64,000 bases of DNA, taken from positions 16,950 through 80,949 of the forward strand of contig CAZJBV010000003.1 in the NCBI GenBank assembly GCA_964544585.1. The letters are read 5' to 3'. This document shows positions 7,109-64,000 of this stretch, piece after piece. The translations under genes were made by a program, and so were the position numbers. Source of the stretch: an uncultured Gammaproteobacteria bacterium (GTDB taxonomy: Bacteria > Patescibacteriota > Microgenomatia > 2-02-FULL-39-11). Position 1 is the first letter of the stretch. The number at the start of each line of letters is the position of its first letter. The notes under the pieces are model-generated. The model saw nothing but the letters and a program-made list of their open reading frames with translations. It did no database searches and was not told where the DNA came from.

Positions 7109-7546
7109 TACCTTTACTTCTAAACTAAACCTCTGTTTCTTAGGTGGTAGGCAAAGTGTAGCAGTGCATCCCTGATATGAAAGCATTCCTTCGATAGGAC
7201 GTTTGCCCGACTTTGCATTTTTATCTACTTCGGTCGGCATCATAATCTTGATTTTGCCCTCATAAACTAGAAGCTCGACTTTCATTTTGTCATCTTGACG
7301 GAAGACATAAATTTAGGTAAACTTTCGTTTACCTTTAAAATCCTCTAATTTGATTTGGTAAGAGTTTTTTAGAGTATAATTCCTTTCTTCTTTTCCCAGA
7401 TAATATCAAAGATTTCCAAAAGAATCTTGCCGAAATAGCAGGTTACCTAGGAAATTAATATAAAAAGCCCCGCCTGCCGGCAGGCAGGACGCCGGCGTGT
7501 TAAAAATCCTCTACTTTACATACATATCAAATTTGATATAATAAAT

Positions 7547-39611: not shown

Positions 39612-41405
39612 ATGATCATTTTGCTCATTTTTGCCTTCCTGTCAGGGTTAGTTACAATTCTTGCTCCCTGCATTTGGCCGCTTTTACCAATAATTCTTTC
39701 TTCATCTGCAACCGGAGGAAGGGAAAAATCATTTGGCATTACCCTCGGTATCATGATCAGCTTTGCCATTTTTACTCTGACCATTTCCTATTTGGTTTCG
39801 CTTTTTAATATCGATCCAGATTTTCTTCGCCTTTTTGCCGTCATCGTCATCGGTTTTTTAGGACTCTCATTAGTAATTCCCCGACTTTCGGGAGTTTTAG
39901 AAGTCTGGGTCAGTAAAATTAGTAGCAAAATTAATCCAACCTCGTCCCAACCAAGAAGCGGTTTCTGGGGAGGACTTATTACCGGAGTTTCTCTTGGCAT
40001 TGTCTGGACTCCCTGCGCCGGACCTATTCTCGCAACTATCGCCACTTTATCAGCCACCCAGGCCGTAAACCTTTCCCTTGTTTTAGTAACTATTGTCTAC
40101 GTCACAGGAATTGGAATTCCACTCTTTTTCTTCTCCTACGGAGGTTCACTCCTTATTACAAAATCAAGAATACTTTCTCCCTATCTTGGTCGCATCCAGC
40201 AAATATTTGGCATCATCATGATTGCCACCGCCCTCGCCATTTTTACCAACTACGACAAAGTCCTTCAGGCAAAACTCCTAGATAGCGTCCCGGCCTATGC
40301 AGATTTTCTGGTGAAACTCGAAAGTAATCAAGAAGTTAAAAAACAACTCGACGTTTTAAAAGGCAAAAAGGAAACAGACGATATGACCGGAAAAGCCTTA
40401 AATCCAATTTCCGAAATGGGGCAAAATTTGTTACCCAAATATGGTCAGGCTCCAGAATTTGTTGGAATTGTTAAATGGTTAAATTTACCAGAAGGAAACC
40501 TGCCTGCCGGCAGGCAGGAAGAATCATTGACTATGTCACAACTCAAAGGCAAAGTAGTTCTTATCGATTTCTGGACTTATACCTGCATAAATTGTATTAG
40601 AACCCTTCCATATGTCACTTCCTGGTACGAAAAATATAAAGACGATGGTCTAATCGTCGTCGGCGTCCATACACCCGAATTTGAATTTGAGAAGAAGACA
40701 GAAAATGTAGAAAACGCTATTAGACAATATAAAATCACTTACCCAGTAGCCCAAGATAACGATTATAAAACTTGGGATGCTTATTCCAATAGGTATTGGC
40801 CGGCCAAATATTTAATCGATAAAGATGGAATTCTCCGCTACTACCACTTCGGCGAAGGAAAATATGAAGAAACAGAAGAAGCAATTAGAACCTTATTAAA
40901 AGATTTAGGGAAAGATATAGAAAAACCAATGCTTGACTTAACAGACGAAACGCCCAAAACGCGAAACACTCCCGAATCATATTTAGGCTCAAAAAGAATG
41001 GAATTCTATTATCCGGGAAGATTTCTTAACAATGGAAAACACAATCTAACACTCCCGGAAAACTTACCCGAAAACACATTTAGTTTCGGTGGAGATTGGA
41101 CCATCAAAGACGAGTACGCTTATGCGGGAAAAAATGCAGTCCTTGAGTTAAACTTCAATGCCAATAAAGTATTTTTAGTAATTCGTCCATCAGAATCACA
41201 AAAAAATTCAACCATGAAAGTTTTATTCGATGGAAAAGTTGTCGATAAAAATAATGCCGGAGTCGATGTCAAAGTTGGAATCGTAACTATAGATTCCGAT
41301 CGGTTATACAATTTAGTTGATTTAAAAGGAAGCCCAAGTCGTCACATTTTACGCCTCGAATTTCAAACAGAAGGAATATCCATCTATGCTTTTACCTTTG
41401 GCTAA
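39612..41405 (+). CDS. CcdA/DsbD-like thiol-disulfide transporter fused to TlpA/ResA-like thioredoxin domain plus extra C-terminal domain
   Basis: CcdA Cys residues sit in LAPCIWPL and WTPCAGP across 6-8 TM helices. These are followed by the redoxin motif FWTYTCINCIRTLP and an uncharacterised domain of about 170 aa. Confidence 0.7.
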   Translation: MIILLIFAFLSGLVTILAPCIWPLLPIILSSSATGGREKSFGITLGIMISFAIFTLTISYLVSLFNIDPDFLRLFAVIVIGFLGLSLVIPRLSGVLEVWVSKISSKINPTSSQPRSGFWGGLITGVSLGIVWTPCAGPILATIATLSATQAVNLSLVLVTIVYVTGIGIPLFFFSYGGSLLITKSRILSPYLGRIQQIFGIIMIATALAIFTNYDKVLQAKLLDSVPAYADFLVKLESNQEVKKQLDVLKGKKETDDMTGKALNPISEMGQNLLPKYGQAPEFVGIVKWLNLPEGNLPAGRQEESLTMSQLKGKVVLIDFWTYTCINCIRTLPYVTSWYEKYKDDGLIVVGVHTPEFEFEKKTENVENAIRQYKITYPVAQDNDYKTWDAYSNRYWPAKYLIDKDGILRYYHFGEGKYEETEEAIRTLLKDLGKDIEKPMLDLTDETPKTRNTPESYLGSKRMEFYYPGRFLNNGKHNLTLPENLPENTFSFGGDWTIKDEYAYAGKNAVLELNFNANKVFLVIRPSESQKNSTMKVLFDGKVVDKNNAGVDVKVGIVTIDSDRLYNLVDLKGSPSRHILRLEFQTEGISIYAFTFG

Positions 41406-50545: not shown

Positions 50546-51079
50546 ATGGAGCAAAATAAATGGATGTGGCTAGGAGGTGCACTACTTGCTGGTTTAGTAA
50601 TTGGTTATATAGCTAGAGGTGTAACAACATTGAGTCCGACGACACAAAATCCAGAACCTACTCCCATGACCCAGGCAGAAAACTTACCTCACTCGGGTTT
50701 TACTCTGCATATCGATGCCGAGAAACACTTTCCAGCCGATGAGAAAAAGATAGCTCATCACTGGTGTAAACAAGTAAAAGGCGGTATGTTTGAGTGTCAG
50801 CTGTATGACTCAGACGATAAAGATGCAAGACTCGTAGGAGTCGAAACAGTGGTAGACACCAAAACTTGGCAAGCCTTTGACGCGGACGAACAGGGATTAT
50901 GGCATTATCATAAAGAAGAAATTCCCAAGATTAACGCCAAACTTCCTGATCTATCAGAAGAGGAAGCAGCCAAAGTAGTTCAAATGTTAAATGAGACCTA
51001 CGGCAAGGTTTATCTACTTTGGGATCCAGCTCAATCTGATCTTCCCATCGGCCAGCCAAGTATTACTATTTTAGAGTAA
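50546..51079 (+). CDS. secreted or membrane-anchored hypothetical protein (possibly DUF1264/OBAP-like)
   Basis: The ATG at 50546 has an SD-like AAGGGGGTGA 8 nt upstream; the ORF track start is a GTG. Motifs HHWCKQ and HYHKEE are present. Confidence 0.3.
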   Translation: MEQNKWMWLGGALLAGLVIGYIARGVTTLSPTTQNPEPTPMTQAENLPHSGFTLHIDAEKHFPADEKKIAHHWCKQVKGGMFECQLYDSDDKDARLVGVETVVDTKTWQAFDADEQGLWHYHKEEIPKINAKLPDLSEEEAAKVVQMLNETYGKVYLLWDPAQSDLPIGQPSITILE

Positions 51080-51101
51080 AAGAAGACGGGGATTGCTATC
51101 G

Positions 51102-51500
51102 TCAGATAAATTCATAAGATAGTTGTCTTCGATATGCAATAGTACCTAGTGGAATAACTTCTGTTGATGAATCCACTTGAAAAGTTTGTTCGTCAATAAG
51201 CACGCCTCTATGATTATCTTTAATTAACTCTAAATTAAGCTCACCTTGAGCAAAGTCCAACCAATAAATATAAAAGGAATAAATATTAAACAGTACTATA
51301 GTTCTATTCACCGAGTCAAACTGAATTTTCTGTCTTTCATCGGGAGTAAATTTTGCAAGTTGAGTAGGTACAAAACGATATAATTTACGTTCTTTAACCA
51401 TCGCACGCAATTTATTACTGCCTGCAACCATAAAAGTTAAAGCTCTCTTTTCATGGTTTGGCCTAGAAATCCCCCATAGAGTTTCATCCAGTGGACTCAT
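51102..51500 (-). CDS. hypothetical protein (start uncertain)
   Basis: The ORF track extends to 51605 but that stretch overlaps the tRNA-Tyr gene. An internal Met near 51500 is more plausible. Confidence 0.3.
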   Translation of the reverse strand: MSPLDETLWGISRPNHEKRALTFMVAGSNKLRAMVKERKLYRFVPTQLAKFTPDERQKIQFDSVNRTIVLFNIYSFYIYWLDFAQGELNLELIKDNHRGVLIDEQTFQVDSSTEVIPLGTIAYRRQLSYEFI

Positions 51501-51563
51501 TGAGGAAGTATTATAGTGCAGCGGAGGTCGTAGACAAAATAATATTCCAACAATCCTCTTCAG

Positions 51564-51646
51564 TGCCGGGACCAGGATTCGAACCTGGGAAGGCGTGAGC
51601 CACATGATTTACAGTCATGCCCTGTTGGCCGCTTAGGTATCCCGGC
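51564..51646 (-). tRNA. tRNA-Tyr (anticodon GUA), type II long variable arm, CCA not encoded
   Basis: The cloverleaf was folded by hand from the reverse complement. Acceptor GCCGGGA/TCCCGGC is perfect. The anticodon stem CATGA/TCATG closes loop CTGTAAA. The variable arm is 14 nt (GGC-tcac-GCC). T-arm is CCAGG-TTCGAAT-CCTGG. The discriminator is A. Confidence 0.9.
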
Positions 51647-51647
51647 T

Positions 51648-51856
51648 TGGAGCCATTATATCAAATAGCTCGCACCTATTTTATCAAAAATTTTTGAAAC
51701 TTGATACTTTATTAAACTGTAGCAAGAAAAAGGGGTTTAAGGGGAAAATGAATTGCTACAGTTTCGCCAATCATTAAGCCTCGCTTCGCTCGGCTTTCTT
51801 TTTGCTTAGCCCTCCTTTCGGTCGGGTCTTCGCCTTCTCTCTTTGGGAAATTTTCG
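51648..51856. repeat. 209-bp inverted repeat, left copy (IR-L)
   Basis: It is 100% identical to the reverse complement of 62772-62980 by base-by-base comparison. It begins 2 nt from the tRNA-Tyr 5' end. It contains an internal 12-bp inverted repeat AAACTGTAGCAA...TTGCTACAGTTT. Confidence 0.9.
51655..51663 (-). promoter_or_regulatory. extended -10 promoter (TGATATAAT) for tRNA-Tyr inside IR-L
   Basis: TGnTATAAT ends 9 nt upstream of tRNA-Tyr +1. Confidence 0.5.
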
Positions 51857-52490
51857 TTATAAGGAAGGGGAAATTATTTTATAGAGTATTAGGTTTTTCT
51901 GATTCCGTCACAGCCCACCCACCCAATTTTTAGATGTAGGCGACTTCCCCCGCTTTGGGCGAGAGAGCTCCCTATGGGGAGCTTCGCTGGAAGTCATCTT
52001 GTTTTATCATCTCTTTACAGTCTCTTACTCGCTTCGGGAAGAATCGTTATCCATCCATACAGTCTTCGTCCCTCCGCTCACCTTGAGTTTGATTTAGTAT
52101 CGCCTGCCGTCGCGGGGGATATCCGCTTCCCCCTTTCGCTCATCCCGACTTTTCATCGGGATTCGCTATGTTCCCCCTTCCTGTGCTGGCTGGTCATCCC
52201 GCCATTGACATCGGCGGGATTCCGCCAGCACTAGGTGGGGGAGCCCCCGCCGCCTGATTTCTATCCCTTCCAGTGTCCGGTCGGCTCGTATCCCGCCTTT
52301 AGTCGGGATACTTCGCGCCTAGTTCGGACCGCTCACCCCGCGTTATCTTTATATAATGTATATCTCGCGGGGTTCGCCTTTGTCGGGAGCACTCTTACTT
52401 TATCTATTTGCCTTGATAGTCTTTCTGTCGTGCTCCCTCCTTTTAGGAAGCTACTATCCGATGGGGGCGGGGTCGGCGGATGTCGCCAAC
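51857..52490. ncRNA. GC-rich, hairpin-rich non-coding region (candidate large structured RNA)
   Basis: Local GC content is far above the genome background. Overlapping low-complexity ORFs fall on both strands with no protein-like sequence. There are several perfect 7-8-bp hairpins (AGCTCCC-TATG-GGGAGCT, ATCCCGCC-N9-GGCGGGAT, GTATCCCG-N8-CGGGATAC). Pyrimidine tracts and a TATAAT occur near 52352. Confidence 0.3.
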
Positions 52491-52850
52491 TTGGCCAATT
52501 ACTTTTTCCACTTGGCCATTTTCCACCATTTTGGCCAAGTTTCTTTTTCTGTTGGCCAATTAACTTGGCCAATTGGTGCATGGGCTTGTCCTGAGGCAAG
52601 TCGGAGGATATACTGGATTTATGAGTGACGATATTGGCCAATCAACAGATACATCTTCGGCTCCTCCGGTTTCCGATGTTCCATTGGCCAATACGCCAGA
52701 TTCCACTTGGCCAATTTCCACCAAAATGGCCAATGACCAACTACAAGAAGCATCACCATCTGGCCAATCAGCTAAAACTCCATTGGCCAATAACGATTCT
52801 GCATCGTCTCCGGACTTGGCCAATCAGGATGCAACCAGTTCTGGCCAAGT
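52491..52850. repeat. array of the palindrome TTGGCCAA(T), at least 13 copies, frequently about 21-bp spaced
   Basis: Exact or near-exact copies start at 52491, 52512, 52531, 52552, 52565, 52634, 52685, 52706, 52726, 52760, 52783, 52816 and 52840. Outliers are near 53100 and 53146. Copies occur in all three frames of the overlapping CDS, translated as LAN, WPI or GQS. Confidence 0.85.
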
Positions 52851-53685
52851 TACGACTTCACTAGACGCTTCTTCATCTCCCAATTTACCTAATCAGTCAT
52901 TACCGGCCGATTCCACTTCTTCCATATCTCCCCAACCTGCCTCGCCGGTAGACGGGTCACCCTCATCACTCCAATCTCCCACAGATAATTTACCCTCGCC
53001 TATTTCTGTTCCTTCACCATCAGTTGAACCATCCCAAATGCAATCCAGACCGTCAGATAGTCCTTCTCAAGATACTACAACTTCTACTCCTCCCGACTTG
53101 GCCACTATCAAGCCGGTGTCTCCACAAAGCCCCCAAAACACCTCATTGGCCAATGACAATTCTCAAAAAACAGAAGAAATTAAGCCCACATCTCCTCCCA
53201 AAAGTTCTTTTGGCGATATCCTAGCTAAAGAAAATCCGCCATCTTCATCTAATCCTTCTCCTCCTTCTACTTCTTCTAATCCTCCTAAACCGTCATCTTT
53301 CGGAAATATCCTACGAGGATACAGTTCTTCATCCCAATTAGACCAATCTTTGCATGATGAACCCAAAATTAATATAGAACCCGTCGTCCCACCAAAGCCA
53401 TCTCCGGCTGTTACTCCCCAGATCCCCCAACCACCCCAATTTCCCTTATCTCCCAATACAAGTGGCCTCCGCCAAAAAGCCAATCAAAAGCGACTCGACA
53501 AAAAACAAAAGAATCTCGACAGAATTATGCTCCTTATTAAAGAAACGGGAACTATCACAAACACAGATGTTCAAAGACTTTGTAGAGTTTCTCAAAGTAC
53601 GGCCACCAACTATCTTACTGAGCTGGAAAAGAAAGGTATGCTCAAACAAAAGGGTATTCGCGGTGGAGCAAAATATACTTTATGA
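52621..53685 (+). CDS. S/P/T-rich low-complexity protein with C-terminal winged-helix DNA-binding domain
   Basis: The Met at 52621 has a GGAGG SD 13 nt upstream. About 300 aa of disordered Ser/Pro-rich sequence carries a duplicated PxSSFG(D/N)IL motif. The C-terminus MLLIKETGTITNTDVQRLCRVSQSTATNYLTELEKKGMLKQKG is wHTH-like. Confidence 0.5.
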   Translation: MSDDIGQSTDTSSAPPVSDVPLANTPDSTWPISTKMANDQLQEASPSGQSAKTPLANNDSASSPDLANQDATSSGQVTTSLDASSSPNLPNQSLPADSTSSISPQPASPVDGSPSSLQSPTDNLPSPISVPSPSVEPSQMQSRPSDSPSQDTTTSTPPDLATIKPVSPQSPQNTSLANDNSQKTEEIKPTSPPKSSFGDILAKENPPSSSNPSPPSTSSNPPKPSSFGNILRGYSSSSQLDQSLHDEPKINIEPVVPPKPSPAVTPQIPQPPQFPLSPNTSGLRQKANQKRLDKKQKNLDRIMLLIKETGTITNTDVQRLCRVSQSTATNYLTELEKKGMLKQKGIRGGAKYTL

Positions 53686-54242
53686 AATCTAAACCCAGTG
53701 CACAAAACAAAAAGTCAGGGAAAAACAAATATGTCCTTGTTCCTCTTGCGCTTCTTTTATCTCTTTCCTCCTTTTTCGCAGGAACAAAGTATGAGAGCGA
53801 GATTAAAGATGCGATTGAAAACCAACCGGTTATAAATCAACAGCAGATCATAGAGTTTCCCACGGAAGCCAAAATTAAAAGAGTTATAGATGGAGATACT
53901 CTCGAGTTACAAAATGGACAAATCGTGCGACTTGTCGGAGTTAATACACCGGATCATGGACAACCATATGATGAAGAATCCACAGAGTTTACCAAAAAAC
54001 TCGTTGAAGAGAAAAAAGTAAATATTGAATATGATGAGTATAAATCAGACAGATTCGGAAGAATTCTTGCATACGTAGTAATAAACAACAAAAACCTCTC
54101 CATTGAATTAGCCAAACGAGGATTAGCCAAAGTTACTATCTACGAAAAAAGAAAACCACTTATTTATCAAGAGCAATTATTAAATGCCGAAAAAGAAGCA
54201 AAATTAAAAAAATTAGGTATTTGGAAAGCAGGTGATAAATAA
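53682..54242 (+). CDS. staphylococcal (micrococcal) nuclease homologue, secreted or anchored
   Basis: It has an N-terminal signal/TM segment. SNase motifs DGDT, RLVGVNTPD and DRFGRILAYV are present. Confidence 0.75.
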   Translation: MKSKPSAQNKKSGKNKYVLVPLALLLSLSSFFAGTKYESEIKDAIENQPVINQQQIIEFPTEAKIKRVIDGDTLELQNGQIVRLVGVNTPDHGQPYDEESTEFTKKLVEEKKVNIEYDEYKSDRFGRILAYVVINNKNLSIELAKRGLAKVTIYEKRKPLIYQEQLLNAEKEAKLKKLGIWKAGDK

Positions 54243-54523
54243 TGGATTTTCAAATAGCAGCTTTACAATTTTTATCAGGTGGCATGGGAGGATTAGTCAG
54301 AGCAGTTGTTGGTATCACTAAAGCCAAAGAATTCGATCCCGAAAAATTCAAATTTCAGTGGAAATATTTCGCAATCACTATTATTGTGTCTATAATCACC
54401 GGTCAAATGGCTGGACTTATTGCAAATGCCGACTGGCGTATGTCCTTATTAGCTGGCTACGCAGGGAGTGATTTTTTGGAGAGCCTATACAAATTAAGAT
54501 TTGCACAATTTTTTAAGTCATGA
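54242..54523 (+). CDS. small hypothetical membrane protein
   Basis: The 93-aa product has two hydrophobic segments. It is translationally coupled to both neighbours. Confidence 0.35.
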   Translation: MDFQIAALQFLSGGMGGLVRAVVGITKAKEFDPEKFKFQWKYFAITIIVSIITGQMAGLIANADWRMSLLAGYAGSDFLESLYKLRFAQFFKS

Positions 54524-54577
54524 AGATATAGACTTAGAAATTTAAAATAAATATATTATTTTATCTTTAGATTTATA

Positions 54578-55939
54578 ATGGCTATTAAAATTAGTAAGAG
54601 CCCACAATTAATTTTTTCTGCACGAGCTTTAATTTTTATTGCAGTTTCCTTCTTGTTTTATCTACTTATAAATTATTTTTATCTTAAGTATACCGCGATA
54701 AATGAAATCCAAGATTACTTAAAGAATGCCAATAATAGGATAGTCTCTGACTTAGCTTATAAAAATGATAAGTGGGACACGACAGCGTATATAAATGATA
54801 GTCAAACAATTCAGGATAATCCTTTATATATATTAACAATAGATGGATTTGTTATCGACAGAATTAAACCAATAAATGGCTTTCTTGATACGTCCGATTT
54901 TATGTTTGGTTCTTCTTTTACAACTCCCAAAACTGTTTCAATCTTAGAAAGTGAAACATGGAGGTTGTATTCAAAAAAAATAATTAGAGAAAATAATATA
55001 TTTGGTACTATACTAGTGGGAGATTTCCAACCGGAAACCACAGAATTAAAAAATATAGATGATGAACTAATTAAGACAGCAGATATGATATTATCTCAGA
55101 TTAAGATCAGTAATAGTGAAATTGATATCTCAGAACTGGATTTAAAAAGAATTAATGTCAGACATTACGTAGAAATAATTGATAGATTTAATCGCTCAAT
55201 AGAAAGCGTTGGTAGTGGAATACCAGCTTATATTGATAGAAGTTATGTTGCAAATGAATTAAACGAAAATTATAAGACAGTTTATGATACGAAGAGTAAA
55301 GAGCCTTTCCTAGTATACTCAAAACCTATTTTCGATATGTCAAATGATCCAATTGGTATAGTTATAAGTGGCTATTCGCTAAAACAAATCTTCATGAATC
55401 TTAGAAACCAGCTTATCTTTTTAACCATAAGTGGTTTGTCAGTAATTATATTTATATTCATATTTCTGATTCTTATATTTCAAAGAAATTTAGCATTTTT
55501 AATCAAGAATCCAAGAGCTGCGCTATTTGGCTTTTCTGGGAAACACGATGAGGCAAATTCAAAAATGGTCCTTGAGGTGGACCAAAATATAGACGGTACA
55601 GTCGTAATAAACTTCCAGGGTAAATTATATAAAATTAGTAAGCCGGAATTTGATAGTGAATCAGATCAACTAATTGAAAGATTAATGGATTTGGTTCAAC
55701 CAGATACTAAAGAGATTGAATATGATGGTTTAAAAGATGAGCAATTAAAATTAAGTACCCCTCTGAGCAGACTTGTAACAAGGCTTGGATTTGTTGGATT
55801 AAAAAGAGACTTATTTTTTCCTCGTACATCTAAACAGAGAGTTTATTTTCGAAGATATCTGACACACAATGACTTAGTAGTTATGAATATAACTACTGAG
55901 CAAATTCTTACTGATCTATTTGTATCTTCGCAAACTTAG
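54578..55939 (+). CDS. two-TM membrane protein with large extracytoplasmic domain and about 140-aa cytoplasmic tail (sensor-like, no recognisable output domain)
   Basis: TM1 spans about aa 17-37 and TM2 about aa 285-310. No catalytic motif was recognised. Confidence 0.35.
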   Translation: MAIKISKSPQLIFSARALIFIAVSFLFYLLINYFYLKYTAINEIQDYLKNANNRIVSDLAYKNDKWDTTAYINDSQTIQDNPLYILTIDGFVIDRIKPINGFLDTSDFMFGSSFTTPKTVSILESETWRLYSKKIIRENNIFGTILVGDFQPETTELKNIDDELIKTADMILSQIKISNSEIDISELDLKRINVRHYVEIIDRFNRSIESVGSGIPAYIDRSYVANELNENYKTVYDTKSKEPFLVYSKPIFDMSNDPIGIVISGYSLKQIFMNLRNQLIFLTISGLSVIIFIFIFLILIFQRNLAFLIKNPRAALFGFSGKHDEANSKMVLEVDQNIDGTVVINFQGKLYKISKPEFDSESDQLIERLMDLVQPDTKEIEYDGLKDEQLKLSTPLSRLVTRLGFVGLKRDLFFPRTSKQRVYFRRYLTHNDLVVMNITTEQILTDLFVSSQT

Positions 55940-56154
55940 CAAACTAAAACTAGGTCTACACAGGTCGGCATAAGTCTTTTTATATCTCACAAGCCTCATT
56001 TAATTACATATCTTTTAAGATGAGATTATCAGCAAAACAAATTATAAATTTATGAATTATTAACTGAAAAAAATGTTTCATCCTTATATATCGGCAATAA
56101 TCTTTATTTTAATTTGGCTACTAATTATAGTGTTATTATTTAAGACTTTATAAT

Positions 56155-56919
56155 ATGTTAAAAATTTCTGGAAAAAATTTAGCAGAATTAGCTTTACCAA
56201 ATACTTGTTCTACTTGCTTTAGAATTAAGGTAAATTTGGACGCACAAATGAGTATCGAGCGTAAGAAAATTCCCTATCAAATGCCTATGCCAGGAATTTT
56301 CGCTAATTTAGATTCGCATATAAAACAAGTTGTAAAACATTATTTTGAAATGCATGGTAGAGTGCCTTCATGGTTTCCAAATATTGGAAGCCAAATAGTT
56401 AGCATTGAATCTCCACCAGGCTGGCAAAAATTCAACGCTTTTATTTCTGAATATAACATCTTTTTGACTGGCGCTCTTGATGTCGTTTTTAAATTAAATG
56501 ATGGTTCATTTGCGTTTGGTGATTATAAAACAGCAAGATTCTCTGAAATGCACGATAGTTTAATACCCTTATACAAAGCTCAATTACATAATTATCTAGA
56601 AATTGCAAAAAGAAAAGGAATTTTTACTCCTGTTTCTAAGTTATTTTTAATTTATGCAGAACCCCTGGACTATAAACCTTACGATGGAATATATCAACTC
56701 ACAGATTTCGAGAAGCTTTTTAAATTGCATTTCAGAGTCATACCAAAACTATTAGAAATCGATACTTATTTGACAGAAAACTTATTAAAGAAGGCTCGCT
56801 CAATTATGAGTAAGCATAATCCTGAAGCATTACCTAATTGTCCAAATTGCGCTTTGAGGACGAGGCTATATAATGAAGAATGTTTGCTAAGATCATCTAA
56901 TAAAGAACAAATAGTATGA
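56155..56919 (+). CDS. putative PD-(D/E)xK-fold nuclease with CxxC...CxxC
   Basis: The core reads GALDVVF...FAFGDYK (D...D-x-K). It has an N-terminal CSTC and a C-terminal CPNC. Confidence 0.4.
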   Translation: MLKISGKNLAELALPNTCSTCFRIKVNLDAQMSIERKKIPYQMPMPGIFANLDSHIKQVVKHYFEMHGRVPSWFPNIGSQIVSIESPPGWQKFNAFISEYNIFLTGALDVVFKLNDGSFAFGDYKTARFSEMHDSLIPLYKAQLHNYLEIAKRKGIFTPVSKLFLIYAEPLDYKPYDGIYQLTDFEKLFKLHFRVIPKLLEIDTYLTENLLKKARSIMSKHNPEALPNCPNCALRTRLYNEECLLRSSNKEQIV

Positions 56920-59900
56920 ATAACTCTATATTAAATTTTATAAGATATTGCCTTAGTTACGTAAAATTAACCAGAAACCGAACTATACTAGATCAGCAGA
57001 AATACTCTGTTGATCTTCCGATGGATTATTTTGGGTTACTTGGTTTATTAAACGGAGATACGGATGAAAAGAATGGTGAGTTAATAAACCTAAAAACTTT
57101 CTATTCCTACGATCCCAAAAATGTTCCAGATGATGAGTTAAGTATTTATGAGAAAGAAAAAGAATTAGCAAACAAGATCGAGGAAATTTATAACAAATAT
57201 CGTAACGACCAATATACAAAGCAAGTAATTTTAAGTTTTGGATATTTCGAAATTGAAATTCCTATCGAAGAGAATGGCGACGTTGTTACACAAGCGGAAC
57301 AAGAGTCAGACGAAAAGCTAACTAAAACCAAAGTTGATCGCTATCCGCTTTTTTCATTACCGGTGAGAATAGAGAAAGAAATTCGCCAAATTGGAGTTGG
57401 AGAATATCTAGTTTACTTCGTTGATCCTGAAGTTCAAGTAAATATCGGAATACTAGAACCATTACTAGGGGAAGATCTATATTTTCAACTTTTGGAAGAA
57501 ATTGGGAAATACGAAATTGAAGGAAGACTAACATTACCAATATTAGATTTAGAAATATTTAAAGAGATTTGGCACAAAATAAAGGCACAATTGCGCTTAA
57601 AAAATGCCAAATTTAATGAACAATCTTTTTCATTAGAAGAAGTAAAAATAGCCCTTGGCCCCAAAGCAAATTACTTCCTCGCAGAGGATCTAGCTAAATT
57701 GAGTCAATTAACAGAGGAAGAGCTTTCTAAAACTGCCCTTACATGTTGGACAGAAGATGAAGGATTAAATGTTGAAAGTGATATTCCACAAGAAAAAGAT
57801 TTATATTTTCCCTTTTTATATGATAAATATCAGCTCTCCTCTCTATCAATACTTGGAAACGTCGCCTCAATTGTTCAGGGACCACCTGGAACAGGAAAAT
57901 CGGAAACGATTTCAAATATACTTTGCCACCTAGCTGCCACTGGAAAAAAAGTTTTATTCGTTAGTCAAAAAGCACAGGCTCTTAAGGTTGTTAAAGATAA
58001 ACTAAAAAAGCTAGAAATAAGGTATTTATTTGGATATTTGCCTAACCCAAATTCTGCTCAAATCGGAGAAGAGGATGAAGCTGACGGTATTGCGCCTCAA
58101 CTGAGCGCTATTGGTTCACATATAGAAAAGATGAGTTTTACACAATATTCAAGTTCTAAATTCGCTCGCTATGTAGATAAAAGTGAAGTAGCTAGCTTGA
58201 TTCATTCTGCTGTTGAAGAAAAAACTGTTAAACGAACTTCATTGAATAGCGTAATTAATGCTCAGAGAAAATATTATCAACTAAACCAAGAACTTTTAAA
58301 TCTTAAAGAATATGACATTGACATTACTGATTTTAGTTATTTCACTCAAACATTCTCATCATTTGAGTGGCAGGAAATCAAGAAAGCAAAAGCGGAAATA
58401 GAAAATCTTAGTGAAATAATAAAAAAATATGAACTAAGTAATGAAAAAAAGGAATATGATAGTCTTTTTCCTTCACTCAATAGAAACCTTGGAGAAATCG
58501 CTGACCAGATTGGAACTATCAGAGATGATGTTGATAAAACAGGTTTTGACCGTCATTCAAAATTTTTGAGAAAAATAAATAACATGAGCCGCGATTTCCG
58601 TCTTAGTAATATTCGTGGAAAGCTCCCACGAGAGATTATCGATCATGTAGATAATATTTTACAAGCTGATAAATCAAGAAGCGAGCAAATAAAATTACTC
58701 GATAATCTCTATAATCATTGTTCCTATTTCAAAAACATTCGGATGCTTAATGGATTTGAAGAAGCCTTAAATCAAAGATTAAATATATGTGGTGTTTCAG
58801 ATAAAGAATTTAAAATTATAGATGAAAAAATTAACAAATCTGCTTCTGCATCTTTAGACGATATCAAAGCTAAAATCCTACGAGTTCAGGAAATAAAATA
58901 TGAACTAGAAATGCTCAAAAAGACTGAAAGCCCAAATAAGATATCTTTAGCAGTGAAGCGTTTCGAACAAAACAGAGTAAAACGTGTGGGGCAATATATT
59001 CAAAATATTATTAATCAAGGAATACTTGAAAAATGGAGGTCAGGTGTAACAATTAAGCAAATTGTAAGAAAACTAGCTAGTGCTTTTGGAAAATCAAAAA
59101 AGGCATTCAAGACCTTTGATAATCTACGTAAAGACATAAACAATTTTAATGCAATTCTTGATTTGATTCCTATTTGGATCATGGAACTCGATGATGCAAG
59201 TCGCATTATTCCACTTGAGGTTGGCATTTTCGATTATGTAATTTTAGATGAAGCATCGCAATGTAATGTAGCATATACCTTGCCAGTCATGTACAGGGCG
59301 AAGAAAATATTATTTGTGGGAGATAGTGAACAAATGCGAGATAGTACTATAATGTTTAAGTCTAATAGGGTTTTTGATGAACTTGCTCGCAGATATCAAA
59401 TTCCTGAGGAAAGACAAATAAAAGCGACTGGAACTTCAGTGCAATCTGTCTTGGATATTGGTTATAAACGAGGTTTCATGGATCGTCCACTTAGATATCA
59501 TTATCGGTCGCCTGCAGAATTAATTGGCTTTAGTAATAAATACTTCTACAAACCAAAAGGTAAAGAATTAATACCAGTTAATAACAATTACCTATCTTAT
59601 AAAGATACGAACCGTATAATGTTTGTACATGAGGTTAAATCTAATTGGAAGGAAGAATTCTCTGATAACATAAACGTTGCAGAGGCAAACAGAATACTTA
59701 AGCTTTTTAAAGAATTGCGAAGTGATATTCGTTATCGAGATAAATCTATTGGTATTTTAACTTTCTTTAATGCACAAGCTGCTTTTATCCGAGATCTTTT
59801 TGAAAAAGAAGGTTATAAAGAAGAAGAGGATAATTACAAAATTAGCATTATTGAAGGTATACAAGGAGACGAAAAAGATATTGTTTTTTACTCATTTGTT

Positions 59901-60479
59901 ATTAGATCCATTGAACAGAAAAATAAGTACGTACCTCTAACTGGTGAAGGAGGAGATCTCCGATCAGATATAAATAAGGGTCGAGTGAATGTTGCTTTTT
60001 CGCGAGCAAAACTACAAGTGCATTGTTTTGTTAGTCTTCCACCTAATGAAATGCCAGAAAGAATTTGGCTAAAGAAATACCTTGAGTATATACATGACAA
60101 TGGTGCAGTTGAATTTTATTCAGATGATCTTAAAACTTTTGATTCCTATTTTGAAGAAGAATTTTATGCGTTATTGCGAAAAAACTTAAAGCGTGGTCAT
60201 AAGATCCAAAATCAGGTAAGAAGTTGTGGATTTAAAATTGATTTTGTTGTTAGCAATTTAAATTCTGGAAAACGTTTAGCGATCGAGTGCGACGGTCCAT
60301 GCCATTTTAAAGATGAATTAGATGAGTCATATGGCATCTATGTGGGAAGCGATGAAGAAAGACAAGCTGTACTAGAAGCTGCTGGATGGAAGTTTTGCCG
60401 GATCAAATATTCAGATTGGATTGACGAAAAATTTGATCGCAATATTGTTACTCAATCAATAATGAATTTACTAAAATAA
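56916..60479 (+). CDS. Upf1-like SF1B helicase with N-terminal unknown region and C-terminal DUF559 (Vsr/restriction-endonuclease-like) domain
   Basis: Walker A is GPPGTGKS, motif II is VILDEASQ, motif V is GIQGDEKDIVFYS, and motif VI is GRVNVAFSRAK. The C-terminal domain reads KRLAIECDGPCHF...AAGWKFCRIKYSDW. Total length is 1187 aa. Confidence 0.75.
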   Translation: MNNSILNFIRYCLSYVKLTRNRTILDQQKYSVDLPMDYFGLLGLLNGDTDEKNGELINLKTFYSYDPKNVPDDELSIYEKEKELANKIEEIYNKYRNDQYTKQVILSFGYFEIEIPIEENGDVVTQAEQESDEKLTKTKVDRYPLFSLPVRIEKEIRQIGVGEYLVYFVDPEVQVNIGILEPLLGEDLYFQLLEEIGKYEIEGRLTLPILDLEIFKEIWHKIKAQLRLKNAKFNEQSFSLEEVKIALGPKANYFLAEDLAKLSQLTEEELSKTALTCWTEDEGLNVESDIPQEKDLYFPFLYDKYQLSSLSILGNVASIVQGPPGTGKSETISNILCHLAATGKKVLFVSQKAQALKVVKDKLKKLEIRYLFGYLPNPNSAQIGEEDEADGIAPQLSAIGSHIEKMSFTQYSSSKFARYVDKSEVASLIHSAVEEKTVKRTSLNSVINAQRKYYQLNQELLNLKEYDIDITDFSYFTQTFSSFEWQEIKKAKAEIENLSEIIKKYELSNEKKEYDSLFPSLNRNLGEIADQIGTIRDDVDKTGFDRHSKFLRKINNMSRDFRLSNIRGKLPREIIDHVDNILQADKSRSEQIKLLDNLYNHCSYFKNIRMLNGFEEALNQRLNICGVSDKEFKIIDEKINKSASASLDDIKAKILRVQEIKYELEMLKKTESPNKISLAVKRFEQNRVKRVGQYIQNIINQGILEKWRSGVTIKQIVRKLASAFGKSKKAFKTFDNLRKDINNFNAILDLIPIWIMELDDASRIIPLEVGIFDYVILDEASQCNVAYTLPVMYRAKKILFVGDSEQMRDSTIMFKSNRVFDELARRYQIPEERQIKATGTSVQSVLDIGYKRGFMDRPLRYHYRSPAELIGFSNKYFYKPKGKELIPVNNNYLSYKDTNRIMFVHEVKSNWKEEFSDNINVAEANRILKLFKELRSDIRYRDKSIGILTFFNAQAAFIRDLFEKEGYKEEEDNYKISIIEGIQGDEKDIVFYSFVIRSIEQKNKYVPLTGEGGDLRSDINKGRVNVAFSRAKLQVHCFVSLPPNEMPERIWLKKYLEYIHDNGAVEFYSDDLKTFDSYFEEEFYALLRKNLKRGHKIQNQVRSCGFKIDFVVSNLNSGKRLAIECDGPCHFKDELDESYGIYVGSDEERQAVLEAAGWKFCRIKYSDWIDEKFDRNIVTQSIMNLLK

Positions 60480-60565
60480 TTATATTCAATTTATGTTTGA
60501 ATTTAAAAAGGTAAACAAAAGTAAAGTGGAAGAAAATTTGATATAGAACTAAATGGAGTAAATTA

Positions 60566-61399
60566 ATGAAAGATAAATATTCAGCAATTTGGGTCTCACA
60601 CTCATCAATAAGTGATTATCTCAAGTGTCCCCGAGCTTATTATCTCAAAAACGTATATAAGGATCCCAAAAATAATCACAAAATAAATATCATGTCTCCT
60701 TCATTAGCTTTAGGCCAAACAGTACATAAAGTCATTGAGTCTATATCTACTCTTCCGGTAGAAAGAAGATTTGAAAAGTCCCTTCTCGATCTTTACGAGA
60801 TATATTGGCAAAAGATATCGGGCGAAAAAGGAGGATTTAGTCATAAAGATGAGGAAGAAAACATCAAACAACAAGGAAAGGAAATGATACAGAGAGTAAT
60901 TAATAATCCGGGTCCTTTAAAAAGAAAAGCTATAAAAATTAGAGAGGACTTACCTTATTTTTGGTTATCAGAAGTTGACAATATTATTCTTTGCGGGAAG
61001 ATAGATTGGTTGGAATATATAGTCGAAAGCGATAGTGTGAAAATTATAGATTTTAAAACTGGTAAGTATGATGAAGACCCAAATTCACTTCAATTGCCTA
61101 TTTATCATTTATTGGTCAAAAATAGCCAGTCAAAAAACATTGTAGGTGTAGCTTACTGGTACTTGGATAGAGATAATGAACCCATAGATGCTTCTTTACC
61201 ATCCTATCAAGAAGCAAGTCAGAGAGTATTGGAAATTGCTAAACACATTGTGTTGGCGCGAAAATTAGAACGGTTTGTATGTGGAAGAAGAGACGGATGT
61301 ATGTTTTGCCATCCATTTGAGACAATTCTTGTGGGAAAAGCTAAATTTGTTGGTGAAGATGATTTTCGTCATGATTTATACGTTATTTCACATAGATGA
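60566..61399 (+). CDS. Cas4/RecB-like PD-(D/E)xK nuclease with four-Cys cluster
   Basis: An N-terminal Cys sits in YLKCPRAYYL. The nuclease core is GKIDWL...IIDFKTGK with a QLPIYHLL QxxxY motif. The C-terminus carries CGRRDGCMFC (C-x5-C-x2-C). Confidence 0.6.
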   Translation: MKDKYSAIWVSHSSISDYLKCPRAYYLKNVYKDPKNNHKINIMSPSLALGQTVHKVIESISTLPVERRFEKSLLDLYEIYWQKISGEKGGFSHKDEEENIKQQGKEMIQRVINNPGPLKRKAIKIREDLPYFWLSEVDNIILCGKIDWLEYIVESDSVKIIDFKTGKYDEDPNSLQLPIYHLLVKNSQSKNIVGVAYWYLDRDNEPIDASLPSYQEASQRVLEIAKHIVLARKLERFVCGRRDGCMFCHPFETILVGKAKFVGEDDFRHDLYVISHR

Positions 61400-61662
61400 T
61401 TATCAAAATAGTATTAAAAATTGATATAGTGTCTTTTCTTGAAAATAGAGTGGCTTTATTTGGTGTTTGGTACTTATCTTTCCGTAAACAGAAGCATAAG
61501 GCGAAAGATATTTTGGATAAGATTGCTATTTTCACTCTCCATTTTCTTGGTATCTTTTCACTTTTTTATCTTAAATCAATAGCCTTTATTTTATGTCTTA
61601 TCTATCGTTTATCTTCTGGGATTACTAAAGATAAGTTAGATCACTGGCTGAATAAAAAATGA
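61396..61662 (+). CDS. small hypothetical membrane protein
   Basis: The 88-aa product is hydrophobic. It overlaps both neighbouring genes (ATGA junctions). Confidence 0.35.
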   Translation: MIIKIVLKIDIVSFLENRVALFGVWYLSFRKQKHKAKDILDKIAIFTLHFLGIFSLFYLKSIAFILCLIYRLSSGITKDKLDHWLNKK

Positions 61663-62756
61663 ATCTTAAGAAAATATTTAATTTTAAATTTAATTTTTTA
61701 GTATTAGTTGTTATTTCTTTTTACTTTTTCTCAATCCAAATGAATTTCATAAATAAAAGACTTGATAAAATAGAAAATAAATTAGGCGGTACCAAAAAAA
61801 TTACCTGCAATGAAAAGGATACTATAGAAAGAGTCCGGCAGTCGGTGGTAAGGATAATTGGCGGGGAATCAGAAGGATCAGGCTTTGCCATCAAAGAAAA
61901 CGGATTAATACTGACTAATTTTCATGTCATCCAGTTTGAACCGAGCCCAAAAGTGGTTTTGCCGGATAATACTTTTCAAACTGCGGAAATTATCATGGCG
62001 GATAAGAATTCCGACCTTGCAATAATAAAAATAAAAAGAGATTTACCCGTTATATCCTGGGGTGAGCCATCAGAACTTGATCCTGCTGAGGAACTTCTGG
62101 CTATAGGGTTTCCTCTGGGCGGCATACTTAAAGGTGAAGCATCCGTCAATAAAGGATCATTATCAGGCAGAAGAAGATCAAAAGATGTGGGAGTTGAGTA
62201 TTTACAGACAGATACTACGCTTACTCAAGGAGTAAGCGGAGGGCCGATGACCAATATCTGCGGTGAGGTTGTAGCTATCAATACAGCCGGATTATCCGGA
62301 TTGGGTTTGGGAATATCAGCCGATTCCATCAAACAGAAATGGCTCGAGATGGCCACCGCCAAAGACTCGCTTAAGGATGTACATAAAATTACTTTTGAAC
62401 CTGATAAAAGTCCGCTGGAAGCAGTACGTGCCTTTTATAATTATCTTAAAGCAAGAAAGCTGGAAAAAGCTTTTGAACTTTTATCCGATAATTTCAAGAA
62501 GGGCTACAGTTTTGATAACTGGAAAAAAGGATATGAACCTCTTTTGGATACTACAGTTATCAAAATAGACGATGACAAAGAGAATGAAAACAGGGTAAAT
62601 ATTAAACTTTCCACAAAAGATATGGTAAGTGATGAAATAGTTTATAAATATTTTGAAGGTTACTGGGATGTGAAAAGTGCGGATGGAAAATGGCTGTTAT
62701 GGGATCCGGAAATTAAAGAAGTTATAAAACCGGATTTCTTTTGGTTTTACGAATAA
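61659..62756 (+). CDS. trypsin-like (S1 family) serine protease with N-terminal signal anchor and about 150-aa C-terminal extension
   Basis: The catalytic triad context is TNFHV (His), DLAII (Asp) and GVSGGP (Ser). The stop lies 15 bp before IR-R. Confidence 0.65.
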   Translation: MNLKKIFNFKFNFLVLVVISFYFFSIQMNFINKRLDKIENKLGGTKKITCNEKDTIERVRQSVVRIIGGESEGSGFAIKENGLILTNFHVIQFEPSPKVVLPDNTFQTAEIIMADKNSDLAIIKIKRDLPVISWGEPSELDPAEELLAIGFPLGGILKGEASVNKGSLSGRRRSKDVGVEYLQTDTTLTQGVSGGPMTNICGEVVAINTAGLSGLGLGISADSIKQKWLEMATAKDSLKDVHKITFEPDKSPLEAVRAFYNYLKARKLEKAFELLSDNFKKGYSFDNWKKGYEPLLDTTVIKIDDDKENENRVNIKLSTKDMVSDEIVYKYFEGYWDVKSADGKWLLWDPEIKEVIKPDFFWFYE

Positions 62757-62771
62757 GAGTCATAAAAATTT

Positions 62772-62980
62772 CGAAAATTTCCCAAAGAGAGAAGGCGAAG
62801 ACCCGACCGAAAGGAGGGCTAAGCAAAAAGAAAGCCGAGCGAAGCGAGGCTTAATGATTGGCGAAACTGTAGCAATTCATTTTCCCCTTAAACCCCTTTT
62901 TCTTGCTACAGTTTAATAAAGTATCAAGTTTCAAAAATTTTTGATAAAATAGGTGCGAGCTATTTGATATAATGGCTCCA
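62772..62980. repeat. 209-bp inverted repeat, right copy (IR-R)
   Basis: Its reverse complement equals 51648-51856 exactly. Confidence 0.9.
62965..62973 (+). promoter_or_regulatory. extended -10 promoter (TGATATAAT) inside IR-R, reading outward
   Basis: This is the mirror copy of the tRNA-Tyr promoter. Confidence 0.45.
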
Positions 62981-63046
62981 TCTCCCGACTTGTCGGGGCC
63001 GCCCGAAGGGCGGCCCAGGGAGGAAGCGCGTTCCCACCTGCTTTTG
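62981..63046 (+). ncRNA. candidate small GC-rich RNA made of three consecutive hairpins
   Basis: The hairpins are CCCGA-CUUG-UCGGG, GGCCGCCC-GAA-GGGCGGCC and CAGGGA-N10-UCCCaCCUG, followed by CTTTTG. It starts where the tRNA starts in the mirror copy. Confidence 0.3.
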
Positions 63047-63293
63047 TATCTTTTAAGAAAATTAGCGTAAAGATTCAATGATACTCGAAAAATTCTACTA
63101 AAACATAGAGTTTTTCGTTATTAACTCTCCCTTGCGATGTTTTATTCCTCCGATTATCACCGGAGGAAACTTTGCCTTTACACTGAAAAATGCATCAGCA
63201 TTTTTTACGTGCAAAAAAATAAAAAGAATTTTTGCTCCGGTTTGATTTATTTAATCATATTGTAAAATCTTTCATCTCATATATATTTATGAT

Positions 63294-63361
63294 GCACACA
63301 AAATATTCCTGTTGAGATTTTTAGTGGCCGTCCTGGTACAGATCTCAACAGATTTGTGTGC
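63294..63361. promoter_or_regulatory. imperfect 68-bp palindrome upstream of the serine recombinase gene (candidate recombination site or operator)
   Basis: GCACACAAA..CTGTTGAGAT - 22-nt centre - GATCTCAACAG ATTTGTGTGC. It ends 25 bp before the recombinase ATG. A NotI-like GCGGCCGC lies just downstream. Confidence 0.4.
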
Positions 63362-63385
63362 AACCGGGGCGGCCGCTTGAAATTT

Positions 63386-64000
63386 ATGAATATATCACCT
63401 GTCAATCATTCAATAATTAAATCTCATAGAAATTATTTGAAGCTAGGGTTACCTATTCAGCAAAAATTCTTTTTATATGCGCGCAAGTCAACAGATGTAG
63501 AAGATAAGCAGATACAATCAATAGAAGCACAATTAGTCGAACTTCGTGAATTTGCAAAACGGGAGGGTTTTCAAATTGTAGAGGAGCTCATTGAAAAACA
63601 ATCAGCCAAGATACCGGGTCGGCCAGTTTTCAATTCGATGATAGAGCGAATTGAAAAGGGTGAAGCCTCCGGTATCTTGGCCTGGCATCCGGATAGACTT
63701 GCGCGAAATTCTATTGACGGAGGAAAAATTATATATCTTATCGATACGGGTAAAATCAAATTCTTAAAATTTCCACAATTTTGGTTTGAGTCTACCCCGC
63801 AAGGTAAATTTATGCTTTCAATTTCGTTTGGGCAAAGTAAATACTTTGTGGATTCCCTCTCAGAAAATACCAAGCGTGGTCTTCGCCAAAAAGTGAGAAA
63901 GGGAGAATTTCCCAGTCTTGCACCCGTAGGATATCTCAATGACACGAGAACCAAAACGATTGTACTTGATCGAAAAAAAGCTTCTGTTATTAAAAAGCTC
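63386..64000 (+). CDS. large serine recombinase (3' partial, runs off window)
   Basis: I translated it by hand; it is missing from the ORF track because no stop falls in the window. The product begins MNISPVNH. It carries YARKSTDVEDKQIQSIEAQ (catalytic Ser context) and AWHPDRLARN. The recombinase-domain GY is in APVGYLND. Confidence 0.7.
   Translation, partial: MNISPVNHSIIKSHRNYLKLGLPIQQKFFLYARKSTDVEDKQIQSIEAQLVELREFAKREGFQIVEELIEKQSAKIPGRPVFNSMIERIEKGEASGILAWHPDRLARNSIDGGKIIYLIDTGKIKFLKFPQFWFESTPQGKFMLSISFGQSKYFVDSLSENTKRGLRQKVRKGEFPSLAPVGYLNDTRTKTIVLDRKKASVIKKL

Follow-up and report, generated by a model that had tools for sequence, protein, structure and literature searches.

Bacteria of the candidate phyla radiation (CPR) have tiny genomes and few recognized mobile elements, and in the literature on serine recombinases and tRNA in CPR/Patescibacteria we found no description of the kind of system considered here, only analogues such as tycheposons. 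Among the described systems, the serine integrases (A118/LI, phiC31, Bxb1, SPbeta SprA, CcrAB, and XisF) have the domain order Resolvase, Recombinase, zinc (Zn) ribbon, and their gene stands at the very end of the element, where it overlaps an attachment (att) site. Islands that tyrosine integrases place at tRNA genes usually carry tens of bases of the tRNA 3' end in duplicate, in the form of direct repeats. Tycheposons insert at tRNA genes in small, streamlined genomes, carry variable and often defence-type cargo, and have a recombinase beside the tRNA, which is a tyrosine recombinase in 910 of 937 elements (10.1101/2020.12.28.424599). Here, we consider a stretch of 64,000 nucleotides (nt), called the window throughout (contig CAZJBV010000003.1 of assembly GCA_964544585.1, positions 16,950 to 80,949), whose right end carries the start of a large serine recombinase (LSR) gene. 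The observations outlined below make it probable that this gene encodes the integrase of an integrative island, that the junctions built around a short tRNA 3'-end core are its sites, and that the long palindrome in front of the gene is a switch-like leader RNA.

The open reading frame (ORF) opens at the ATG at 63386 on the plus strand and reaches the window end at 64000, with 205 codons in the window. Pfam Resolvase (PF00239) covers its residues 29-174 (E 1e-22), and the catalytic-domain motifs YARKST(D), SIEAQ, and DRLARN are present, as is the recombinase-domain VGY; 63386-64000 is the start of an LSR, as a sequence-only reading of the window had recognized from these same motifs. The continuation of the gene was read from a near-identical NCBI record (GCA_016186845.1 / JACPKX010000017.1, our loci L091 and L095), reached via a look-up with the PD-(D/E)XK gene of the window; L095 is 100% identical to the window across the cargo and across 62990-64000. 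The complete recombinase in L095 (12743-14353) has 536 amino acids (aa), its stop falling at window-equivalent ~64996, 996 nt beyond the window, and it has all three domains: Resolvase, Recombinase (PF07508, E 4e-14), and Zn_ribbon_recom (PF13408, E 3e-10). The latter two fall outside the window itself and were seen in L095 and relatives. After the Zn ribbon comes a heptad-like conserved stretch, KLQFLLDSYLDQ..KKSEEQ, a candidate for the coiled-coil insertion of the zinc-ribbon domain, which in LSRs controls directionality. The gene list of the NCBI record has no recombinase gene at L095 12191-14554 despite the intact 536-aa ORF, which would explain why the database holds no identical protein. 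An exact DNA search for the window continuation gave no match in metagenome_contigs or viral_contigs, and a look-up with the window protease returned short Logan contigs only, broken at a 209-bp repeat described below. The coding region also contains a perfect 13-nt inverted repeat (63605-63617, GCCAAGATACCGG; 63669-63681, CCGGTATCTTGGC).

Databases contain 2,891 homologues of the fragment, of which the best are 70-85% identical and labelled mostly Patescibacteria/CPR, and a scan with one genome per species found at least 584 LSR loci in genome_contigs. Complete ORFs of relatives have 510-550 aa and the same three domains. Only one relative was found among 2.9 million viral contigs, and the LSR is therefore not a typical phage integrase. 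The nearest NCBIfam models score far under their cutoffs (CcrB, 111 bits versus 900; XisF, 92 versus 375), and a PDB search gave distant catalytic-domain matches only. We rejected a small serine invertase (Hin/Gin/Cin; ~180-200 aa, with a C-terminal helix-turn-helix and 26-bp hix-type sites) on the basis of the 536-aa length, the Recombinase and Zn-ribbon domains, and repeats of 88 and 209 nt. We also rejected an IS607-type serine transposase, a protein of ~190 aa whose DNA-binding domain precedes the catalytic one, on the basis of the N-terminal catalytic domain and of 27-31 bits against NF033518, whose cutoff is 110. About 15 of the best 80 loci have non-CPR titles (Gammaproteobacteria, Bdellovibrionales, Phycisphaerae, Syntrophaceae, Bacteroidetes, and Verrucomicrobiota), probably through mis-binning or mislabelling. 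Most of the database homologues are fragments on 1-2-kb contigs that typically break in the repeats called P and X below or at the gene 3' end, and we conclude that these repeats systematically fragment short-read assemblies of such loci.

Where does the gene end? In L095, the stop lies antisense within a tRNA-Thr(TGT) gene (14286-14359, minus strand) just beyond the window, and past this tRNA come chromosomal genes for a methyltransferase, a GT20 glycosyltransferase, and a SurA-like protein. The same arrangement is widespread: a minus-strand tRNA sits at the LSR 3' end in 55 of 82 loci, with 26 different isoacceptors represented, whereas the tRNA is upstream of the gene in 7 loci, all on contigs that stop in the second arm of X, and 20 loci, mostly at contig ends, have no tRNA on either side. 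The recombinase ORF passes through the X repeat and the core into the antisense tRNA, and the recurrent protein tail ..G-I/F-E-P.. is the antisense T loop.

X is an inverted repeat that flanks the gene. Its left arm (62974-63061, plus strand, starting with the core) matches the reverse complement of L095 14205-14292 at every one of its 88 nt, and its own reverse complement encodes ..ALPPWAALRAAPTSREME, the LSR C terminus in L095. What had been taken for a separate hairpin RNA ahead of the gene is this arm, in which the LSR 3' end is repeated in inverted orientation; hairpins at 62981-63050 do exist, with an unremarkable fold energy (z -1.8). An X repeat is found in ~70 of 82 loci; its length is 114-220 nt, and the two arms of a locus are mostly 97-100% identical. 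The first bases of both arms match the end of the adjacent tRNA, from its last acceptor base through the discriminator to CCA (CACCA, CTCCA, TACCA, etc.); beyond the right arm lies a genuine tRNA, and beyond the left arm lies the conserved region P. Seen from the tRNA side, X occupies the position of a tRNA terminator, and it has GC hairpins followed by U runs, among them a terminator-like hairpin plus U run at 63018-63045. We predict that these hairpins would stop transcription arriving from tRNA-Thr or from P. In one relative, L003, the sequence beyond the right X arm (~11480-11570) has the end ..GGGTTCAATTCCCGCTGTCGGCTCCCA and is tRNA-like; ARAGORN called no tRNA or transfer-messenger RNA (tmRNA) there. 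A palindrome, GCCTGCCGGCAGGCAGG, that looks like a dispersed repetitive extragenic palindromic (REP)-like or terminator element occurs at 7466-7489 and 40496-40519 of the window and at L095 ~14437-14460, just past tRNA-Thr. The ends of the L021 contig, 125-nt inverted copies of each other, were judged to be an assembly artefact.

P is the second inverted repeat, the conserved region tttttgataaaataGGTTCGAGC..TGTATAAT.. of relatives, where it recurs inverted 2-11 kb upstream, at 93-100% identity, in 15 or more loci with enough flank. In the window, it corresponds to a perfect 209-nt inverted repeat (left arm, 51648-51856, minus strand; right arm, 62772-62980, plus strand) that encloses 10.9 kb; the sequence-only reading had noted this repeat, and it is real. 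The placement of P and X means that the cargo is bracketed by P repeats and the recombinase gene by X repeats. The left arm adjoins the 5' end of tRNA-Tyr. The right arm contains a hairpin, a T-loop-like motif (GGTGCGAGC, 62952-62960), and an extended -10 element (TGATATAAT, 62965-62973) directed toward the core, ~3 nt ahead of it. Across loci, the T-loop-like GGTTCGAGC of P lies 24 nt from CCA (mode, 23 loci), compared with 20 nt in real tRNAs (mode, 28 loci). In LI integrase, the motif for the zinc-ribbon domain (ZD) is 5 bp nearer the centre in attB than in attP (PMC3783163), and the offset in P is a suggestive parallel to that shift. At one junction (J1), the extended -10 faces tRNA-Tyr, and at another (J2), it faces X and the recombinase gene. 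We propose that, as an outward promoter, P would resupply transcription to the part of a tRNA operon that an insertion cuts off, here tRNA-Tyr.

Some features of P stand apart from this argument. Its hairpin at 62864-62914 (also at 51714-51764) has a covarying stem, AAACTGTAGCAA/TTGCTACAGTTT in the window and GGCGGCAA/TTGCCGCC in L001/L002, and a conserved loop, TTCATTTTCCCCTTAAACCCCTTTTTC. L091/L095 do not have window positions 51789-51849 (61 nt, left arm) and 62914-62989 (76 nt, right arm), the latter deletion taking the core along with the J2 promoter on one side and the initial 9 nt of X on the other, and the two leaving P repeats of 74 and 72 nt. A Logan contig (L086) backs the window version, and the deletions may be real, giving a variant that has lost the internal site, or may have arisen in assembly.

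The sites themselves can be read from three junction types, J1 (P|core|D, where D is the flank at J1), J2 (P|core|X), and J3 (tRNA|core|X). In the window population, J1 reads ..TATAATGG CTCCA A-tRNA-Tyr (core at 51648-51652, as the reverse complement), J2 reads ..TATAATGG CTCCA TCTCCCGAC.. (core at 62976-62980, plus strand), and J3 reads ..TTCGATTCTCCGGGAAGG CTCCA TCTCCCGAC... J1 and J2 are identical through ..TATAATGGCTCCA and then part into tRNA-Tyr or X, and what J3 has in common is GGCTCCA plus X; CTCCA closes both P copies and opens both X copies. It is C72-U73-C74-C75-A76 of tRNA-Thr, and we propose it as the crossover region, with the exchange predicted at N73-C74. In 15 other loci, a core of 3-6 nt is likewise common to the three junctions. 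At L041, L044, and L080, D is the next tRNA, as it is in the window, where tRNA-Tyr(GTA) (51563-51646, minus strand) starts 1 nt past the core; at L012, L023, L027, and L035, it is a terminator hairpin. Flanks of this kind are what would natively come after a tRNA gene. LSRs recombine attP with attB at a 2-bp crossover, and the attL and attR that result have no long direct repeats. The three junctions swap flanks as attL, attR, and attP would, around a shared core of only 3-7 nt; J1 and J3 are directly oriented, and J2 is inverted relative to both. Based on this comparison of sequences, the junctions with the tRNA 3'-end core, and not the palindrome, are likely to be the recombination sites. 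In this model, J3 (tRNA-Thr|X) behaves as attL and J1 (P|tRNA-Tyr) as attR, and J2 (P|X) would be a complete attP-like copy kept inverted inside the island. With J1 as attR and J3 as attL, the island would run from 51648 to window-equivalent ~64933, a ~13.3-kb integrative island between tRNA-Thr(TGT) and tRNA-Tyr(GTA) with the LSR as its putative integrase; in the empty site, tRNA-Tyr would follow tRNA-Thr. Two other schemes, recombinase and cargo circles that excise separately and duplications that are products of conservative inversions, were rejected by reasoning only: site orientation or copy number fails.

Could the recombinase instead act mainly as an invertase, in a multi-inversion switch that turns around the X-bounded gene and the P-bounded cargo, and not as an enzyme that moves an island into and out of the chromosome? 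Several observations would fit. Each segment lies between long inverted repeats, mostly 97-100% identical, whose cores face outward, and one junction is inverted relative to the other two. The seven contigs with the tRNA upstream could be inverted forms, ~16 of 120 C-terminal recombinase fragments enter antisense P (..YLYNSARTYFIKNS*) instead of an antisense tRNA, and loci L087 and L088 have identical DNA with oppositely oriented cargo. However, orientation over repeats longer than the assembler k-mer can be the assembler's choice, and all seven "inverted" contigs stop in the second repeat; since L087 and L088 both run out in the far repeat, this pair was not taken to prove inversion. Inversion also leaves unexplained the 26 tRNA sites with unrelated cargo and the native-looking tRNA downstream region at J1, and LI integrase disfavours site pairs other than attP x attB (PMC3783163). 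We therefore regard a primarily inverting role as unlikely; as an added activity, inversion is compatible with an island.

The second half of the argument concerns the long imperfect palindrome between X and the gene, which had been proposed as the kind of site that the recombinase binds. It is real: 63290-63385 (plus strand) folds at -40.1 kcal/mol, compared with -22.3 +/- 3.2 kcal/mol for shuffled sequences (z -5.5, 0 of 200 as good), and a covariance model built on relatives scores 79.5 bits (E 5.6e-18) over 63279-63387. The 68-bp palindrome forms a helix, P1 (63293-63362, plus strand; 63293/5-63362 as a palindrome), which ends 23 nt ahead of the ATG and consists of two 10-bp stems (outer, 63293-63302/63353-63362; inner, 63309-63318/63342-63351), a 6x1 internal loop (63303-63308), and a 22-nt centre (63319-63340). 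Together with a 3' tail, it makes up an LSR leader RNA of ~95 nt (63293-63385, plus strand). A loop segment of P1 (P2a, AGUGGCCGUCCUGG, 63323-63336) can pair with a segment of the tail (P2b, CCGGGGCGGCCGCU, 63364-63377), which begins 1 nt past P1 and ends 8 nt ahead of the AUG. In relatives, the module has a fixed order, comprising a TTTTTGCTATAAT promoter, a long stem that varies from locus to locus, a near-invariant loop (CUUUUUUAAUGGCCGUCUCGGNCAAU), and a near-invariant tail (CCGGGGCGGCCAUUUAAGUUUU). Where relatives carry that promoter, the window has TTGTAA-16-TATATT (63260-63287, plus strand), a consensus match from which transcription would begin at the base of P1; a scan found promoter-like sites to be no more numerous than in shuffled sequence.

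Among 31 aligned sequences, pairing is seen in 97.9% of cells, and compensatory changes occur at 16 of 23 pairs. These changes fall in both helices (6 of 9 pairs in the P1 outer stem, where 98% of cells are paired, and 10 of 14 in P2). The covariation score is 0.462, compared with 0.179 in shuffled alignments (none of 500 scored as high) and no more than 0.096 for slid pairings. At two positions, P2 keeps U-G pairs (in 29 and 23 of the 31 sequences), so this pairing is valid on the sense strand only. P1 is likewise more stable on the plus strand than on the minus strand in 28 of 31 loci (-28.3 versus -24.0 kcal/mol, p 2.6e-6) and contains 43 G-U pairs across loci. Searching ~84 related loci with the covariance model gave 40 strong and 4 weak hits, one per locus and every one immediately 5' of the LSR ATG, with 9 of the strong hits coming from outside the seed alignment; in 1.02 Mb of related DNA, there was no hit away from LSR starts. 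Loci that do not have the module have the ATG ~10 nt past a TATAAT box. The leader matches none of the 4,227 families of Rfam 15; two tRNAs alone reached the gathering threshold in the window, with no further match at E <= 1 within 51000-64000. The palindrome thus behaves as a sense-strand RNA structure and not as a recombined DNA site, and the alignment supports the leader well as a new RNA motif with two competing helices.

What might such a leader do? Forced into P1 or P2, the family members fold at -34.7 versus -35.7 kcal/mol, with P1 lower in 16 of 31. In the window, the P2 conformer (-40.8 kcal/mol) extends to 2 nt ahead of the AUG and is followed by a U-rich tract, whereas the P1 conformer (-32.0 kcal/mol) leaves the initiation region free. 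A compact H-type pseudoknot of P1 plus P2 was rejected on geometric grounds: because P2b begins 1 nt past P1, a single nucleotide would need to bridge a helix of ~20 bp, which is implausible. We judge the two folds to be mutually exclusive, and two covarying helices that exclude each other at near-equal energy fit a bistable regulatory leader, not an att site. We infer that the most likely role is that of a two-state switch that limits recombinase synthesis through occluded initiation or attenuation. In this model, the leader is transcribed from the recombinase's own putative promoter, the P2 conformer would block initiation or terminate transcription, the P1 conformer would permit expression, and the balance of the two would set recombinase output. 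A guide role of the IS110 bridge-RNA type, in which a DEDD/RuvC-like recombinase is guided by unpaired RNA loops complementary to target and donor DNA, was dropped, with no formal scan for complementarity to the att core, because the variable leader segments pair with each other (in P1) and the enzyme is a resolvase-family LSR; the unpaired parts are the conserved ones.

Two alternatives for the palindrome have to be weighed. First, the module could be an insertion resembling a miniature inverted-repeat transposable element (MITE), selfish and with no regulatory role, in the 5' untranslated region of an ancestral recombinase gene. Its presence in about half of the loci, its terminal inverted repeats, and the short TATAAT-to-ATG spacing where it is missing would all be expected of such an insertion. 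However, neither the 1.02 Mb of related DNA nor the 64-kb window contains another copy, and the compensatory changes that maintain the helices across divergent lineages, together with the near-invariant loop and tail, indicate selection on the RNA; we consider a MITE-like origin of this kind quite improbable. Second, the palindrome could be a DNA site for the recombinase, att or operator, with arms that covary since both half-sites are read by a dimer. What invites this idea is a long and imperfect inverted repeat placed 23 nt ahead of the gene, together with a semi-conserved outer-arm pattern (TGYRNNCAA/TTGNNYRCA), an overlap with the predicted transcription start that would let a bound protein repress, and a window P1 that has no G-U pair. 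Against it stand the G-U pairs of P1 at other loci and its strand asymmetry, and the conserved U-G pairing between P1 loop and 3' tail would be meaningless in duplex DNA. The attP of LI integrase is ~50 bp, two half-sites of 25 bp (PMC3783163), whereas the outermost arms here are ~70 bp apart. Further, about half of the loci have no module yet show the same repeats and tRNA junctions, and flank exchange occurs at the CCA core, with the palindrome lying 300 nt inside that junction. The chance that the palindrome is a DNA site is therefore slim. The earlier pairing of enzyme and site survives in one part: the LSR is tied to the P-bounded cassette, and the palindrome is not what is recombined. 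That the recombinase belongs to a separate element right of the window, as the run of the gene past the window edge had allowed, can practically be dismissed, since in L095 the gene ends 996 nt past the window in tRNA-Thr with ordinary chromosomal genes after it, the P arm upstream of the gene perfectly matches the arm at the far side of the cassette, and the linkage of gene and P recurs in 15 or more loci.

Several points weigh against our reading of the locus as an island with a leader-controlled integrase. An exact search for the predicted empty site, tRNA-Thr directly followed by tRNA-Tyr, gave no match, and no circular form was found; mobility is therefore read from comparative anatomy only. 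To our knowledge, canonical serine integrases keep no attP inside the integrated element and do not recombine attP with attL or attR, and a simple integrase model does not account for the inverted P|X copy inside the island. The flanks at L060, L064, and L075 are not tRNAs. At L087, P|X is found on both sides of the gene with arms that are just 80% identical, so that the doubled P|X is not an assembly ambiguity; considered with the recombinase fragments that run into antisense P, it indicates that both arrangements occur in nature. L064 includes LeuRS and a class II aminoacyl-tRNA synthetase in its cargo, and LeuRS is an unusual gene for an island to carry. Promoters and terminators were called from consensus matches only, the mutual exclusion of P1 and P2 comes from geometric reasoning and not from a three-dimensional model, and the continuation of the window was borrowed from a record that differs by two P-arm deletions.

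The cargo between the P arms (51857-62771) encodes, by domain matches, a winged helix-turn-helix (wHTH) protein, a staphylococcal nuclease (SNase), two unknown proteins, a superfamily 1 (SF1) helicase that carries a REase_MTES_1575 domain (PADLOC: PDC-S37, 6.6e-72; Hhe, 1.8e-36), a Cas4-like PD-(D/E)XK nuclease, and a trypsin-like protease. In an all-against-all BLAST of 16 loci, the cargo between the P arms is unrelated from one locus to the next, and LemA/DUF2207/RDD proteins, glycoside hydrolases, and PPDK-like proteins are found at others. SNase and wHTH, considered as a conserved left module because SNase is present in L001-L003, were set aside when tblastn and the all-against-all BLAST showed the cargo to be otherwise unrelated. 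Between the left P arm and the wHTH gene, 51857-52620 has ~51% GC, compared with 37% around it, and many short hairpins; Rfam matches nothing there at E <= 1, and the stretch may represent an origin-like region or a structured RNA. L060 and L064 lie on one Saccharibacteria contig, JAPUDQ010000038.1, as convergent recombinase copies ~20 kb apart, neither adjoining a tRNA.

In total, these data describe a widespread and apparently undescribed family of CPR islands with a new leader RNA motif. We speculate that the integrase would read universal features of tRNA (the T arm, the acceptor end, and CCA), among which it appears to discriminate mainly by the discriminator base, and would insert behind almost any tRNA gene; that the island would mend the interrupted tRNA operon with a terminator (X) and a promoter (P) of its own; and that the two inverted copies of the attachment region would let the recombinase and cargo segments flip, as in the yeast 2-micron plasmid. 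If the island excises, a circle with two inverted attachment regions could integrate either way or flip. As a whole, this fuller picture, in which a new family of CPR mobile islands combines a universal-tRNA-reading integrase, operon repair, flipping segments, and a bistable leader, is offered tentatively, and we would put its chances at somewhat less than even. The recombinase is 70-85% identical among metagenome-assembled genomes (MAGs) labelled as different CPR candidate phyla. Such a single, highly conserved recombinase family with unrelated cargo would give CPR bacteria, a large part of the bacterial tree, a major route of gene flow, and the nuclease/helicase defence-type genes of the window would be carried by such a route. 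The tRNA 3' end as a generic landing pad would be unusual for serine integrases, the enzyme may serve as a multi-site or easily retargeted integration tool, and the leader offers a testable case of RNA-level control of a recombinase.

How, then, does this system compare with known ones? With the serine integrases, it has in common the three-domain enzyme, the terminal gene that overlaps an att site, and a shared motif that is further from the crossover on the element half-site than on the host half-site, a feature of both (PMC3783163). Unlike those serine integrases, which have one specific site, this family targets the 3' ends of many tRNA genes, keeps an inverted attP-like copy, and brackets its gene with a long inverted repeat that includes the gene 3' end; it also has a dedicated structured leader RNA and is nearly absent from viral contigs. 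Insertion at tRNA genes, variable cargo, and a recombinase beside the tRNA are common to tycheposons and this island. In contrast to tycheposons, the recombinase is a serine enzyme, the shared core is just 3-7 nt, and the long repeats are inverted; membership among tycheposons or other tyrosine-integrase tRNA islands was rejected on the basis of the enzyme class, a shared core of 5-7 nt, and the inversion of the long repeats.

Invertible segments are a further point of reference. Hin and Gin are invertases of ~190 aa that act on 26-bp sites with a Fis enhancer, and shufflons use a tyrosine recombinase. As in Hin/Gin segments and shufflons, the recombinase gene lies inside inverted sites and adjacent segments are bounded by inverted repeats, but unlike Hin and Gin, the enzyme is a 536-aa LSR, the repeats have 88-209 bp, and different genomes have the element at different tRNA loci. 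In the yeast 2-micron plasmid (FLP/FRT), FLP is a tyrosine recombinase, and by analogy, an excised island circle would likewise split into a recombinase segment and a cargo segment. Finally, the leader resembles bistable leaders such as attenuators and riboswitch expression platforms, in that two exclusive helices of near-equal energy lie just 5' of the start and one of them reaches the initiation region with a U-rich tract after it. Unlike known bistable leaders, it has no known ligand, protein, or tRNA partner and no Rfam match, and it is an RNA tied to a recombinase gene.

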